Shown: positions 14,866 to 19,261 of the stretch, one piece after another | How positions within the stretch are numbered: the first letter of the stretch is position 1 | Layout of the letters: every line of letters starts with the position of its first letter | Assembly: GCA_027623195.1 (NCBI GenBank) | Contig: JAQBUT010000038.1 | Coordinates: 1 to 19,261 of the forward strand | Direction: 5' to 3' | Length of the DNA: 19,261 bases | DNA from: Chloroflexota bacterium | GTDB taxonomy: Bacteria; Chloroflexota; Dehalococcoidia; Lucifugimonadales; JADFKI01 | Notes under the pieces: model-generated | Databases searched by the model: none | What the model saw: only the letters and a program-made list of their open reading frames with translations | Told to the model about the DNA's origin: nothing | Position numbers and translations under genes: made by a program

Positions 14866-15411
14866 TTAAGGCAACTTTGGCATATCCGCCCTGGGCTCCA
14901 CTTCAAAGGCATTCAACGCGCAGGCCAGCATGCCATAGTAACCAAAGGTTGCCGTCAACTCGGTCACACCCTGCTCGCCGTATTTTGACACGGCAGCTTC
15001 GTACGTAGCTTTCGAGACCCGGTGGTCGACAAGTATCTCTCGCCCATAGCTCACTATAAGAGCCTCGTCTTCGTTTAGACCGCTTATGTCCCGTTTGTTG
15101 GCTACAACGTCGATTGCCTCATCCCGAACGCCTGCTTTGCGGGCGAGAACCTCATGGGCGCCCCACTCGTATTCGCAATCGAACTCTCGGGCCGCGGTGA
15201 TTATCGCCAGCTCTTTGTCGGCGTCGGGCAGGGTGGACTCAAATCTTAGGTATGCGCCAAGGTGAGCCGCCCTACCGGCAACCTCCGGACTGTTGAGAAG
15301 GACTGAAAAGGGGCCACTCACACGACCACGGCTGGCCGCTATGGAGTCGAAGATATCCCCGTGCTCCGAGGCGACGTCCTGTTTCTCGGTGATCTGACGG
15401 ATTCTGACCAT
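14866..15411 (-). CDS. Carboxymuconolactone decarboxylase / AhpD-like family protein
   Basis: GPFSVLLNSP, LG.YLRF, KELAII.AARE..CEYEW.AH..LAR.AG and GV.ELTA..GYY. GAGGAG RBS. Confidence 0.88.
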   Translation of the reverse strand: MVRIRQITEKQDVASEHGDIFDSIAASRGRVSGPFSVLLNSPEVAGRAAHLGAYLRFESTLPDADKELAIITAAREFDCEYEWGAHEVLARKAGVRDEAIDVVANKRDISGLNEDEALIVSYGREILVDHRVSKATYEAAVSKYGEQGVTELTATFGYYGMLACALNAFEVEPRADMPKLP

Positions 15412-15520: not shown

Positions 15521-17449
15521 CTAGCTGCGTGAAAACCGTCGTGGAACCTGGACGATGTAGTCCCAACCCAGAGTCACAATGAGGCCGAATATGCTTATGG
15601 CCAGAGTCATAAGGGAACGGTTGACTAATCCGGAAGAGAAATCGTTGTAAACGGTCTGAATTAATTGTATTAGCTTTTCCGCAATCAGTACCTTAGTCCC
15701 ACCGAAGCTTTGTTCGGCAACGGCGTCGGCAAGAATTCGCTCCTGTAACCCATCCAATAAGTTGCCGACTATAAGGCCGTAGACCACGCCAAACATCACC
15801 AGTATAACCAGGGAGGCCCCAGCCAAAGACCCGAAGGCCCACGTAAAGCGCCCCGACCAACCTCTCCCGCCCACGAAGGCAATTGCAATTATCAACAGCA
15901 ACACCGGTATGAAGGCAAGGAAGCCAAGGTTTCGAGCCAACTTCAGATAGGAGCGGGCGTTCTCCAGGATTGGTACGACCGAAGGGTAATTAGAATCGAC
16001 GTATGCTAAAAATTCGCTTTCGTCGAAAGTCCAACCGCCAGATATCAGTCCTCGGACGCGGGCAACATTGCTGGATGCTTTCTGACCGTCCACCTCGCCG
16101 AAGGCAAGCTCGCCCAGGTTCACCAGGAAATCCTCATCGGTATAGACCCAACCGTTGCGTACCCTATCCCTTATCGAGTCAACTACAGAAGATCCCTCTT
16201 GCATGCCTGCCAGCGACATTGTGTCGTAAAGATCCTGCTCAGTAAATACGATGCTTTCAGGAATCACTGATACGATACTGGCGCTAGCCACGGAACTGAT
16301 CTGGTCACTCAACAGCTTTGTAAGCTGCAGAACCGTCGTATTCTGCGGAATACACTCTACCTTACCCTGTAGCCCGCTGGCCAGAATCTGCTGAAGCGAG
16401 ATATTCTGGCAACTGGGTAAAGCGGCCACCGCTTCGTCAAGCTCACGAGAGACCGTGTCTTCTAGAACGACCACTGCCTTAGCCTTGATTTCGGTTAAGG
16501 AAATGGTGCTGCTAAAACTGTCCGCATGGCCAGTTAAAAACGGCGTAGCGTCATCGATAATTTGTTCCGCCTGCGCCTGTATCCACTCGGGAGGCGCAAC
16601 ATCCCGGAGCGCCGTAGCGATCTCCTGTTCCTCCAGTTGAATGCCGTAGGGAAGATTTATGCTGCCGCCAAGACTTTCGTTAACCAGTGGGTCGATTAGC
16701 TGGTCGTAGAGGCTTTCGTACGCACCGGATGCGTTCAGCAAGCCTTTGACCTCCTGAAGCCCAACCTCTACCCGGCCATCCAAAGGAACGACAATCCGGA
16801 AACTATCTGCTCTACCCGCAAGGTACGGCGTCACCTCATCCACTGCCGCAACGAATTGAGGCTCTACCCAATCCCTAGGCGCAATTCGTTCTACTGAAGC
16901 CAGAATCTGTTGCTCTGAAAGGTCTAGCTGCACAGGCAGACTACCAATAACGGTATCCGTTACCAGGGGCTTAACCATTTGATCAAATATTATGTCGTAG
17001 GTGTTGGAGCCTACGATAAGGCCCTTGAATTCGGTTGAAAGTGCATCGGCCCTGTCGGCGAACTCAACCTTTACGAGGAACTGCTCCCGCTCGCCTGTTA
17101 TGTAGGCCCCAAGCTGGCTAATTACATGCTCGGATACCCCCTGAACCCACGGTACCGGCAGCGCAGCGTTCATCGCTGTCACCACTTCATCGGTGCCAAT
17201 GCCCAGCGTTTCAAAGGGTCTGCTACCCAGCGTCCCTCCACCGGAACCTGAGGACTGTAAGTCAATAATGGCAGAGGTGGGGACATCCTTCAGGAAGAAG
17301 GTATAAACGTCTGAGCGGTCCAGAACTTCCGAATAGTAATCTGAGCGCAGCAAAGTTGAGTTGATCTGCCAGATGGCGAGGGCCAAGGTCAACAAGAAAA
17401 TCAGTAGGTCTACCATGAGAAAGGCAAGCGAGCGTCGTAACCACTTCAT
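15521..17449 (-). CDS. Large hypothetical membrane protein with internal repeats of about 94 aa
   Basis: 642 aa: one N-terminal TM, a large acidic soluble region with three repeats (Trp101/194/289), and about 3 C-terminal TM helices. Confidence 0.8.
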   Translation of the reverse strand: MKWLRRSLAFLMVDLLIFLLTLALAIWQINSTLLRSDYYSEVLDRSDVYTFFLKDVPTSAIIDLQSSGSGGGTLGSRPFETLGIGTDEVVTAMNAALPVPWVQGVSEHVISQLGAYITGEREQFLVKVEFADRADALSTEFKGLIVGSNTYDIIFDQMVKPLVTDTVIGSLPVQLDLSEQQILASVERIAPRDWVEPQFVAAVDEVTPYLAGRADSFRIVVPLDGRVEVGLQEVKGLLNASGAYESLYDQLIDPLVNESLGGSINLPYGIQLEEQEIATALRDVAPPEWIQAQAEQIIDDATPFLTGHADSFSSTISLTEIKAKAVVVLEDTVSRELDEAVAALPSCQNISLQQILASGLQGKVECIPQNTTVLQLTKLLSDQISSVASASIVSVIPESIVFTEQDLYDTMSLAGMQEGSSVVDSIRDRVRNGWVYTDEDFLVNLGELAFGEVDGQKASSNVARVRGLISGGWTFDESEFLAYVDSNYPSVVPILENARSYLKLARNLGFLAFIPVLLLIIAIAFVGGRGWSGRFTWAFGSLAGASLVILVMFGVVYGLIVGNLLDGLQERILADAVAEQSFGGTKVLIAEKLIQLIQTVYNDFSSGLVNRSLMTLAISIFGLIVTLGWDYIVQVPRRFSRS

Positions 17450-17631
17450 GTTAAACCACTTTATTTGATGATATATCTTTAGGCAATGCCTCTTAGTGGT
17501 GGTTTTGATTGAGTGTGATTAACTGGGAGATGCCACGACCTTACTCTTGCAGTAAAGGGCGTGCATCAAGCGCCGACCTAGTCAACCAGCCGTGTAGAAG
17601 GGGAACAAAATGTCGTAGCAAAAGACGTGGT

Positions 17632-17715
17632 GAGCACCCACGAAGCACGCTTGTGGAGGCAGGCCCCCTGCTGAGCCTCCGCATCGAAATCGAGGCCGTG
17701 GGCGTGTTGGACTGA
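17632..17715 (+). pseudogene. C-terminal remnant of a RidA/YjgF-family gene
   Basis: Translates as EHPRSTLVEAGPLLSLRIEIEAVGVLD*, resembling the RidA C-terminal P..STLVEV..L.....(V/I)EIEA.AV. The upstream in-frame sequence is not RidA-like. Confidence 0.5.
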
Positions 17716-17739
17716 GTACCTGTTAAGGCTACTTCAGGG

Positions 17740-18465
17740 TCAAAGGCCCTTGGCTATCTGTTCCTTTTGCCAAACAAAGTCGACCTCTGCGTCGTAGAAC
17801 TTGCCGGGATTTTCAGCGGCCCAAATCTGCTTTCGAATAATCCAGTTATCGGGCTCCAGTTCCGCCCCTTGCTTCCACAGGGCCATGGCTTCGGCATGAC
17901 GACCCTGATTCTGCATCTCGGTGCCCTCGCGGAAAAGTTCATTGGCCTTGTAGTGTTCCGGTGGGAGCCCAGGATCGGATGGCTCAGACGCCACCTCGCC
18001 GGTAGCGTTAACCCACTGGTCGACAATCGATGCGAATTCAGGCTTGCGAATGTCGAATCCACCCAGTTTTTTGTACTGGACGACACCTTGCTCATCTACC
18101 AGAAACCCGTTTGGCACGGCCTTAAAGCCATAAAGCTGACCCAGCAGGTTCTGCTCGTCCTTGACCGTTAAGAATTCAGTTTTGGCCCGCTGGACGTAAG
18201 GCAAAATTTTCTCGTCGCCCTGGGCGTCTATGGCGACCGATATGATTTCTACGCCCTTGTCCCTATTGTTCTCGAACCACTGTTGCCAGACTGGCAACTG
18301 ATTTCTACAGGCTCACCAGGATGCCCACATAAAAACTATGACCTTCTTGCCTTTGTAGTCCGACAGAGACAAATTTTCAGGCCCGGCCTCAGACCCTACC
18401 ACCGGCAGTGTGAAGTCCGGGGCGTGATCCCCAACTTTGAGGATGGATTTAGATGATGCAGTCAT
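17740..18465 (-). CDS. Probable selenoprotein: TlpA/ResA-like thioredoxin-fold protein (WASW-U-AC motif) with C-terminal TPR-like region, 241 aa
   Basis: ATG 18465 with GGAGAG RBS gives MTASSKSILKVGDHAPDFTLP...LSDYKGKKVIVFMWASW, then TGA (18315-18313, codon 51), then ACRNQLPVWQQ, in frame with the track ORF 17740..18297. A SECIS-like hairpin follows the UGA. Confidence 0.9.
18282..18298 (-). promoter_or_regulatory. Bacterial SECIS-like hairpin
   Basis: mRNA GUUGCCA-GUC-UGGCAAC: a 7-bp perfect stem whose apical loop starts GU, 21 nt after the UGA. Confidence 0.75.
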
Positions 18466-18514
18466 AGTTTCTCTCCGAGTCCCTATCATTTACCAGATCG
18501 ATTTTGCACAAGCC

Positions 18515-18748
18515 CTATTCGTAGAAGCTACAGCCTATACCGTGGTATCCGATTGTGACCTTTCCATCTTCCACAAGAACCGGCGTAATGCGCTCGCCGT
18601 CCGTAAGGGCCTCTAACTCCGCCCACTTTTCGGGCTCTATTGCCAGGTCTACTTCCCTGTAGGTTGTGCCCTTTTCATCCAGCTCCATCTTTACGGAGAC
18701 GCAAATGGTGCACTCTGGATGGGTGTAGATAACAACGTTGTCCGCCAA
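18515..18748 (-). CDS. Glutaredoxin-like protein (CTIC motif, C-terminal GIGC), UXX-star-like Cys form
   Basis: IYT.PECTIC..VK..L...G..Y.EVDL, the cis-Pro motif TPV, and tail VTIGYHGIGCSFYE*. TTG start with GGAG RBS. Confidence 0.85.
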   Translation of the reverse strand: MADNVVIYTHPECTICVSVKMELDEKGTTYREVDLAIEPEKWAELEALTDGERITPVLVEDGKVTIGYHGIGCSFYE

Positions 18749-18807
18749 TTTTCACTCCGTATCCACTTTGAACTTGGATGCCGCGTCCCCTTAGCTGAAG
18801 CAGGGCT

Positions 18808-19035
18808 TTAAGATACGCAGCCGATGCCATTCACGCCAACGATGACCTCATCGCCATCAATAACAACGGGCGTGAGCTTTACCCCGTCGGTATACTCTAA
18901 AATTTCGCCCCATCGCTCTGGATGAAGAGACAGATTTACCTCTTCATAATCTTTGCCGTCTTTTTCCAGGTCGGCTTTTACCTTATCCGTGTAGCCGCAA
19001 CCCAGGGTCGAGTAAACAAGAATCTTGTCAGCCAA
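18808..19035 (-). CDS. Glutaredoxin-like protein (CGYT motif, C-terminal GIGCVS*), UXX-star-like Cys form
   Basis: VYST.GCGYT, TPV, and a Cys exactly two residues before the stop. TTG start with GAGGTGA RBS. Confidence 0.85.
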   Translation of the reverse strand: MADKILVYSTLGCGYTDKVKADLEKDGKDYEEVNLSLHPERWGEILEYTDGVKLTPVVIDGDEVIVGVNGIGCVS

Positions 19036-19233
19036 GTCAGATCACCTCTTCGCTAAATGTTGTATCCGGCAATACATAAGAATTTAAAAGAATTTTGAGC
19101 CATTCCCTATCCATTAGATACGGATTAATTCTAAAAGATTCGGTCCATCAATGCAAAAGGCCCGTTACCGGTTCATTACTGAGGTGGTATCGGTTTTTTA
19201 GACAGGTAGCTAAGAGAGAGTCCCGCTCCTAAA

Positions 19234-19261
19234 ATGACAGAAATAAAGGAGCAGGAAAATG
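19234..19261 (+). other. Probable start of a divergent gene running out of the window
   Basis: Either ATG 19234 (MTEIKEQEN...) or AAGGAG-N7-ATG at 19259. Too little sequence to identify the product. Confidence 0.35.

Follow-up and report, generated by a model that had tools for sequence, protein, structure and literature searches.

The results of our analysis indicated that the gene at 17740..18465 (reverse strand) was real and was routinely truncated by gene callers, and that, with its conserved in-frame UGA and downstream hairpin, it very probably encoded a 241-aa selenoprotein. We predicted that this protein was a cytoplasmic disulfide oxidoreductase of the TlpA/ResA type, in which Sec51 would be the attacking residue and Cys53 the resolving residue. 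The window, which is the whole 19,261-nt stretch of DNA that was analyzed, was the entire contig C53 of a 3.0 Mb source genome (G000) that was 87% complete, and the close database relatives of the protein carried the label Chloroflexota. The features of the gene were as follows.

17740..18465, reverse strand: full coding sequence, 241 aa with a predicted Sec at codon 51 (frame read-through and aligned relatives)
18471..18476, reverse strand: RBS-like GGAGAG, 5 nt before the ATG at 18465 (Met at this position also in a relative of the same genus)
18313..18315, reverse strand: in-frame TGA, predicted Sec51, the attacking residue (aligned with the first Cys of CxxC; TGA in 99 of 99 loci, 80 of them the best of 428)
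18307..18309, reverse strand: Cys53, the sole Cys of the protein and the predicted resolving partner in U-x-C (unchanged in 16 of 16 rows)
18282..18298, reverse strand: putative upper stem-loop of a bacterial SECIS, from UGA+15 to +31, with 7 bp and a GUC loop that starts at +22 (fold and covariation)
18001..18444, reverse strand: TlpA/ResA/DsbE-type thioredoxin domain, about residues 8-155, with the invariant Pro118 as the expected cis-Pro (AF2, Foldseek, VIA-align, and alignment)
17743..17961, reverse strand: helical tail, residues 169-241, with one TPR (175-207) and a family-specific RKQxWAxExPxxFY...DxxWQ segment (Pfam, model, and NF041054)

Translation of the frame from the ATG at 18465 to the stop at 17742-17740 gave 241 codons with a single internal TGA, which was codon 51 (18315-18313) in the sequence WASW-U-A-C-RNQLPVW. 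A previous sequence-only reading had extended the frame upstream through this TGA to the ATG at 18465 and had predicted that gene callers would truncate the gene, and both proposals held. Gene calling with table 11 split the frame into 18313..18489 and 17740..18297, and 117 of the 120 protein matches listed were 161-196 aa long and did not span the active site; the NCBI entries of 185 aa belonged to this group. The terminal codon was also TGA and served as a true stop, and the genes of relatives stopped at the same place, mostly with TAG or TAA. An alternative start at the ATG at 18489 was rejected, as the extension was not conserved. In profile searches, the 50 residues before the internal TGA and the 190 residues after it each matched ResA/TlpA-type models separately, and both flanks were homologous in 16 aligned relatives.

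All 99 short-form loci, 90 of which were distinct in the 45 nt counted from the UGA, had TGA at codon 51; they comprised 19 genome loci and the best 80 of 428 confirmed metagenome stretches. The main pattern of the metagenome scan started downstream of the site. Because the loci were related by descent, their numbers exaggerate how independent the observations are. In two studies, contigs of four other runs covered codon 51 and listed no other letter at 18313-18315; in runs X3 and X4, the Cys53 codon had a synonymous TGT>TGC variant. Because the TGA was present in all 99 loci and the four other runs agreed, it was neither a sequencing error nor a one-off allele. When the protein was searched against 61 related genomes at an E value of 1e-20, 20 genomes gave 21 matches, all with exactly one TGA; 17 were short forms (about 235-241 aa), and 4 were long forms with an added N-terminal domain. 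In a class-wide sample, 28 of 301 genomes gave 30 matches, and 28 of these had one TGA (this tally takes in an unpublished genome, G302, used only there and in its locus listing). The two exceptions (L110 and L115), both long forms, had TGC at the site; the pattern used to read this codon covered 25 of 28 listed loci. Thus, the alternation of Cys and TGA at codon 51 that the sequence-only reading had proposed to look for, with homology on both sides, was seen. A search of genome contigs with the single protein yielded 55 loci, all of them distant CxxC-type relatives and none close.

The residue between Sec51 and Cys53 in the 99 loci (80 being the best of 428) was A in 51, G in 26, N in 7, V in 5, M in 4, S in 3, and D, R, or E in 1 each. 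The idea that U-A-C was an unusual and distinct variant was rejected, as Ala was the commonest middle residue.

Cys-containing homologues were also present among database proteins. The tail motif was found in 62 of 150 representative homologues, and 10 of these 62 fit the site pattern: 6 had C-x-C, 1 had W-x-C, and 3 lacked the pair. The remaining 52 started after the site or were missed by the site pattern. The C-x-C homologues were the tail-bearing P0143, P0146, P0166, P0177, P0125, and P0254, together with P0133. Seven other homologues (P0122, P0200, P0214, P0243, P0252, P0123, and P0136) kept the fold and tail and lacked one or both redox residues (SGS, DVS, DSC, CGS, and others). Replacements of the redox residues included S-x-S, D-x-S, and A-x-G; therefore, the fold can persist without Sec/Cys chemistry, and these homologues possibly form a noncatalytic branch.

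Four database proteins (P0007, P0081, P0092, and P0128) had Trp at the site. Such proteins would be expected if the TGA were read as Trp, one form of the view that the TGA is not a Sec codon at all; the other form is that it is a stop, produced by a nonsense allele, a sequencing error, or the presence of two genes. The sequence-only reading had held that Trp in homologues would count against Sec. None of the four Trp entries lay on a contig longer than 1504 nt, and P0081 ran on for four residues beyond the point where its own cluster mates end, the first of these residues being Trp, an overrun that fits a gene caller reading TGA as Trp. For these reasons, the entries were best read as TGA mistranslated by the gene caller. 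Trp read-through was rejected on these grounds; the source genome also ends genes at TGA. In the case of a stop, the split would, in the predicted model, sever the fold between its central strand and the helix that follows. With the TGA retained in 99 of 99 loci (80 the best of 428), we regarded a stop or Trp codon as scarcely credible.

The hairpin behind the UGA provided a further line of evidence for Sec. The region 18270-18312 folded with an energy of -10.9 kcal/mol, and the hairpin satisfied the bacterial SECIS model given in the available part of a 2026 review (loop of 3-9 nt, G in the first two loop positions, stem of 4-16 bp, 16-37 nt from the UGA, and MFE <=-7.5; PMC13188914). The folding energy did not differ significantly from that of shuffled sequences (z of -0.15 to -1.12). 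The stem paired Leu-Pro codons with Trp-Gln codons, and its conservation was examined in the 90 distinct loci listed; kinship among loci inflates all of the covariation counts that follow. At positions +16 and +30, both synonymous, the pairs were C-G in 58 loci, U-A in 18, and U-G in 14, so that the positions were paired in 90 of 90 loci; the C-A mismatch occurred in none, against 18.8 expected from codon use. A control pair in the same loci showed no association (p 0.37). The Leu codon of the stem was YTG in 87 of the 90 loci, against 40 expected. Positions +21 and +24, which are third bases of Pro and Val/Gly codons, formed a Watson-Crick pair in 76 of the 90 loci (shuffle mean 23.9) and in 31 of 36 after thinning to <60% identity (background 0.30). 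This covariation points to a +21/+24 pair that closes a two-base G-U or G-G loop in those 76 loci. Closure of a two-base loop by a pair is reminiscent of SECIS structures in complex with SelB. The other 14 loci, including the source gene, had A at +21, which is able to pair with U at +25. In the TGC genes at L110 and L115, the loop G was replaced by A and one stem pair was broken. Separately, the same-genus locus L031 (G001:C212) had an A-C mismatch in the SECIS stem, with TTA for TTG; a mismatch at this pair occurred in 3 of the 90 loci listed, and its genome, which was 86% complete, contained selB and selD and gave no selA match. The synonymous covariation across these loci makes the family a clean data set for the study of SECIS elements.

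The source genome contained selA (554 bits), selB (311 bits), and selD (385 bits), all above the curated cut-offs, and a tRNA-Sec with a TCA anticodon, also above its cut-off; its selD itself contained one TGA. All four components that the sequence-only reading had asked for were thus present, and the Sec machinery was complete. Together with the TGA in 99 of 99 loci (80 the best of 428), the hairpin covariation, and the Cys homologues, this machinery supported the earlier proposal that the UGA is recoded, and Sec is almost certainly inserted by SelB with Sec-tRNA at the hairpin. Among the TGA-carrying genomes of the relatives set, selA was found in 16 of 20; G001, G042, and G059 gave no selA match and contained selB and selD, and G060 (74% complete, long form) had the TGA and no match to selA, selB, or selD. 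The genomes of L110 and L115, which carry TGC at the site and are 96% and 94% complete, gave no match in the selA profile search, and G129, a TGC genome in a single contig, also had no selB or selD above cut-off.

A genome-wide scan of the source genome for UGA codons followed by hairpins returned 73 matches among 2758 candidates, many of them plainly false, and was too loose for a count of the selenoproteome. Further in-frame TGAs were noted at C11:127689, C24:88104, C44:2835, C2:11735, C9:140409, C37:34288, C1:47392, C33:21799, C44:77108, C1:6249, C3:47143, C65:80284, C65:97712, and C37:45681. Judged by eye, these 14 motifs resemble those of known selenoproteins (AhpD-like CxxU, DUF3179 UxxC, CxU, UGSC, Prx-like UxxC, and OsmC-like types). 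According to the available part of the BSepDB article, Dehalococcoidia genomes have 46-49 selenoproteins (PMC13326102).

The earlier assignment of a TlpA/ResA fold was borne out by structure. The AF2 model of the whole chain, with U modelled as C, had a pLDDT of 90.4 and a pTM of 0.87. The top 20 Foldseek rows shown were all TlpA, ResA, or DsbE types (3gl3 at E 7.4e-13), and VIA-align superimposed 139 residues on 3gl3 with a Z of 19.5 and an rmsd of 1.8. As had been proposed, the UGA fell at the place of the attacking Cys in a contracted U-x-C site: in alignments with 3hdc, 3gl3, and 3kcm, codon 51 took the place of the first Cys of W-C-x-x-C and Cys53 that of the second, and a gap of one residue preceded Cys53. 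The residues invariant in 16 rows included W47, W50, U51, C53, R54, Q56, P58, and P118 in the domain and K212, Q213, W215, F223, Y224, and W232 in the tail. A hydropathy scan revealed no signal or membrane segment (highest 19-residue value, 0.93), and the protein is likely, judging from its sequence, to be a cytoplasmic Sec/Cys disulfide oxidoreductase.

We also considered that the selenoprotein might be a peroxidase, in which Sec51 would reduce peroxides directly, Cys53 would resolve, and the UXX-star protein encoded upstream would recycle the enzyme. Sec favors peroxidase chemistry, the best Pfam match was PF00578 (AhpC-TSA; 71.1 bits, cut-off 26), and peroxiredoxins appeared from rank 5 in VIA-align. 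However, the PxxxT/SxxC peroxidatic motif was absent, and VFMWASW preceded the site instead; the W-C...C-R-x-x-x-P register of TlpA/ResA proteins and Pro118 were kept, the Foldseek rows shown lay with TlpA/ResA/DsbE types, and NCBIfam Prx models scored 35 bits or less. In addition, the Cys homologue P0146 was fused, in a single gene call, to a separate AhpC/TSA domain, an arrangement better suited to the reductant of a peroxidase. In the available parts of the literature, the family was named "Prx-like (UGC-containing)" in 2008 (PMC2398784) and TlpA disulfide reductase in 2026 (PMC13188914). On balance, we considered a peroxidase unlikely.

A Sec-dependent dehalogenase-like enzyme that works in the manner of a deiodinase seemed very improbable. 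The first 50 residues had a weak match to NF038285 (deiodinase_rel; 15.7 bits), and one database homologue, P0211, was joined to a DehI domain. However, the cut-off of NF038285 is 250, the match was absent for the whole protein, the P0211 fusion was a single gene call, and the top 50 structural matches were without a deiodinase.

Compared with ResA, TlpA, and DsbE (CcmG), the source protein that we predict to be a disulfide oxidoreductase shared the fold (Z of 19.5 to 3gl3 and 18.7 to ResA 2f9s), the attacking position, and the Pro of the cis-Pro loop. It differed in having U-x-C rather than C-x-x-C, which is one residue shorter, and an extra C-terminal helical tail, and the membrane anchor or signal of those proteins was not seen in the hydropathy scan. 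ResA and TlpA models matched far below their cut-offs (76 of 170 and 47 of 230 bits, respectively).

The closest published kin were the 46 "Prx-like (UGC-containing)" selenoproteins of Zhang and Gladyshev, as given in the available part of their 2008 article (PMC2398784). The source protein fits this family as an ordinary further member, and the family has been in print since 2008; reviews of 2022 (PMC9312934) and 2026 (PMC13188914) include it in the parts available, the latter as TlpA disulfide reductase with MDE0950781.1 as the representative. Shared features were the AhpC-TSA/TlpA fold and the WASW-U-x-C site, with Sec one residue before Cys. Likeness was judged by eye from the site and tail motifs in the accessible portion of Dataset S1, in which two GOS reads had U-G-C-R-G-Q-L-P-G-W and one of them also had the same TPR and IRKQxWA tail. 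The reads differed in having extra N-terminal sequence and Gly as the middle residue where the source protein has Ala, and WUAC and QLPVW were absent from the accessible portion of the 2008 supplement (PMC2398784). Because 26 of 99 loci (80 the best of 428) had Gly and the U-G-C and U-A-C rows were intermixed in the tree, Gly seems to be a label rather than a family boundary. Our literature search found no experiment on, and nothing on the function of, any family member.

The sequence-only reading had also assigned the protein to a WAxxUGC family. The kinship stood, but strict membership in NF041054 (WAxxUGC_long) did not: this best NCBIfam match scored 133.9 bits against a cut-off of 300. Model positions 83-194 (thioredoxin domain) and 270-327 (tail) were matched, whereas the N-terminal domain (about 1-80) was absent, and the upstream DNA held UXX-star genes instead. 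The source protein had U-x-C-R-x-Q-L-P where the model has U-G-C-R-x-D-L-P. As controls, the long forms L047 and L050 passed the cut-off (318 and 319 bits), and the short forms L032 and L034 failed (163 and 150 bits). In the tree, short and long forms grouped together against CxxC proteins (100/100); the short forms were not resolved as one clade (2 changes), and of the 8 CxxC rows meant to serve as the outgroup, 4 were captured. These results call for a correction of annotation, as the NCBIfam model misses the short form and 117 of the 120 relatives listed lack the active site.

The tail had been read as a TPR-like element that may select a client protein. A single TPR was indeed found, with a Pfam TPR_2 score (18.2 bits) below the cut-off of 27, but selection of a client was not supported: a TPR client-binding groove consists of three or more tandem TPRs, and one repeat makes no usual groove. 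The tail was also already present in sequences published in 2008 and in the NF041054 model. Modelled alone, it had a pLDDT of 90.3, and a structure search with the tail alone found nothing at E 0.001; the best matches were TPR proteins with a Z of 8.1 or less, ordinary for helical bundles, and about 48 residues were well covered. A complex prediction for the tail (165-241) and the UXX-star protein at 18515-18748 scored 0.00 against a mark of 0.32; with no folded controls, this score speaks neither for nor against contact. Given the high pTM of the whole chain, the tail in the model likely lies against the thioredoxin domain and serves for structure or docking, unlike a classic multi-TPR client groove.

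Two UXX-star genes were located upstream of the selenoprotein gene.

18515..18748, reverse strand: UXX-star family 2 glutaredoxin-like gene, Cys form, with N-terminal CTIC and C-terminal GIG-C-SFYE (NF041211, 114.4 bits, cut-off 100)
18808..19035, reverse strand: second, divergent UXX-star glutaredoxin-like gene, Cys form, with CGYT and C-terminal GIG-C-VS (NF041212, 70.5 bits, cut-off 66)

The first gene ended 49 nt upstream of the selenoprotein start and had the GxG-[U/C]-xx end of family 2 as well as a score above its cut-off; relatives had a Sec-encoding orthologue at the same place. The second scored 76.6 bits against NF041211, below 100, and only these two genes in the source genome passed the NF041212 cut-off. 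According to the available part of the 2026 review, UXX-star family 2 was defined by Haft and Tolstoy in 2025 in a study on selenoprotein neighborhoods (PMC13188914), and the pairing with the short form may already be described there or in its supplements. Of the 85 informative loci (from the 99 loci, 80 of them the best of 428, after 14 with too short a flank were set aside), 47 had a same-strand UXX-star homologue within 1.5 kb upstream, as did 14 of the 19 genome loci. Because the other 38 informative loci had no UXX-star gene within 1.5 kb upstream, despite at least 600 nt of room, the pairing is not obligate.

Among the matches listed, the upstream gene encoded Sec in 44 loci, and 37 of 43 distinct UXX-star proteins were Sec forms with CxxS and a hairpin behind the UGA. 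The 6 Cys-form genes had, by eye, no comparable G-looped stem behind the site. Compared with the Sec forms, the window genes had Cys for Sec, CxxC for CxxS in one copy, no SECIS-like hairpin, and a second, divergent copy. Since the CTIC copies clustered with Sec copies, one from the same family (97/99, with only 72 columns), the change likely ran from Sec to Cys with a gain of CxxC. Tandem Cys-encoding pairs occurred at three loci: the source window, the same-genus L031, and the metagenome locus L136. A single feature set this window apart, namely that the upstream gene was duplicated and converted to the Cys form.

The neighborhood also bore on a third possibility, in which the U-x-C pair and the UXX-star arm would bind or pass on Cu, Hg, As, or another soft metal or metalloid with no disulfide exchange. 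A heavy-metal P-type ATPase-like gene, identified by eye from its motif, lay upstream in 8 of the 90 loci listed, but the window and most of the loci lacked one. Pro118 speaks against this idea, as disulfide exchange goes together with the invariant Pro of thioredoxin folds. According to the available part of the 2026 review, UXX-star proteins may use their Sec to bind metal (PMC13188914). We considered a metal-handling role to have a slim chance.

Clustering of neighbors in the 90 distinct loci listed revealed no other widely shared gene; the largest true neighbor clusters comprised 7-9 of 90 loci, and the top clusters were shadow frames. The eight loci with the ATPase-like gene were L154, L043, L162, L186, L189, L190, L200, and L206, and in 4 of them a YHS-like gene accompanied it (both by eye). 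In the window, 15521-17449 (reverse strand) encoded a 642-aa protein that was hydrophobic at both ends and matched nothing in Pfam or NCBIfam; in 7 of the 90 loci, a gene of this type followed the selenoprotein gene downstream in the same orientation. The gene at 14866-15411 (reverse strand) encoded a CMD/AhpD-family protein (PF02627, 34.9 bits) that contained a single Cys and lacked CxxC. A tRNA gene was found beside the gene pair in 5 of 15 loci scanned: tRNA-Asp downstream in L035, L038, L041, and L043 and tRNA-Ala upstream in L036 (1071-1146). A tRNA scan of 16243-19261 in the window found none, and a promoter scan found one site (19157-19128), which is at chance level (1.7 expected).

Returning to the disulfide oxidoreductase, we propose the following mechanism, with chemical steps that draw on the fold and on known thioredoxin chemistry. 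SelB and Sec-tRNA would bind the hairpin and insert Sec at codon 51. The Sec51 selenolate, positioned opposite Pro118 where helix 52-70 begins, would attack a client disulfide, and Cys53 would then free the client and leave a Sec-Cys bond that spans one residue. A partner protein would re-reduce this bond; on gene order only, we put forward the product of the first UXX-star glutaredoxin-like gene upstream as the candidate. Potentials of -130 to -200 mV, which are relatively oxidizing, are given for other CxC redox sites in the available part of one report (PMC3173608). By analogy, such values hint at isomerase-like or easily reduced behavior, and Sec may shift the potential.

A broader reading, which we offer tentatively and hold to be possible rather than probable, is that Chloroflexota have a dedicated selenium redox relay of two proteins, the short U-x-C TlpA protein and the UXX-star family 2 glutaredoxin, with the C-terminal Sec arm of the glutaredoxin exchanging with U-x-C. 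In this genus, the relay would be half converted: the partner would have gone from Sec to Cys, lost its SECIS, gained CxxC, and been duplicated, and the TlpA protein would have kept its Sec. If the UXX-star link is functional, it would provide a testable partner for two uncharacterized selenoprotein families, and the Cys-form partners would be easy to express. If the relay is true, the unmodelled short clade has been almost wholly missed by databases, and this genus would offer a natural experiment on which step of the relay needs selenium.
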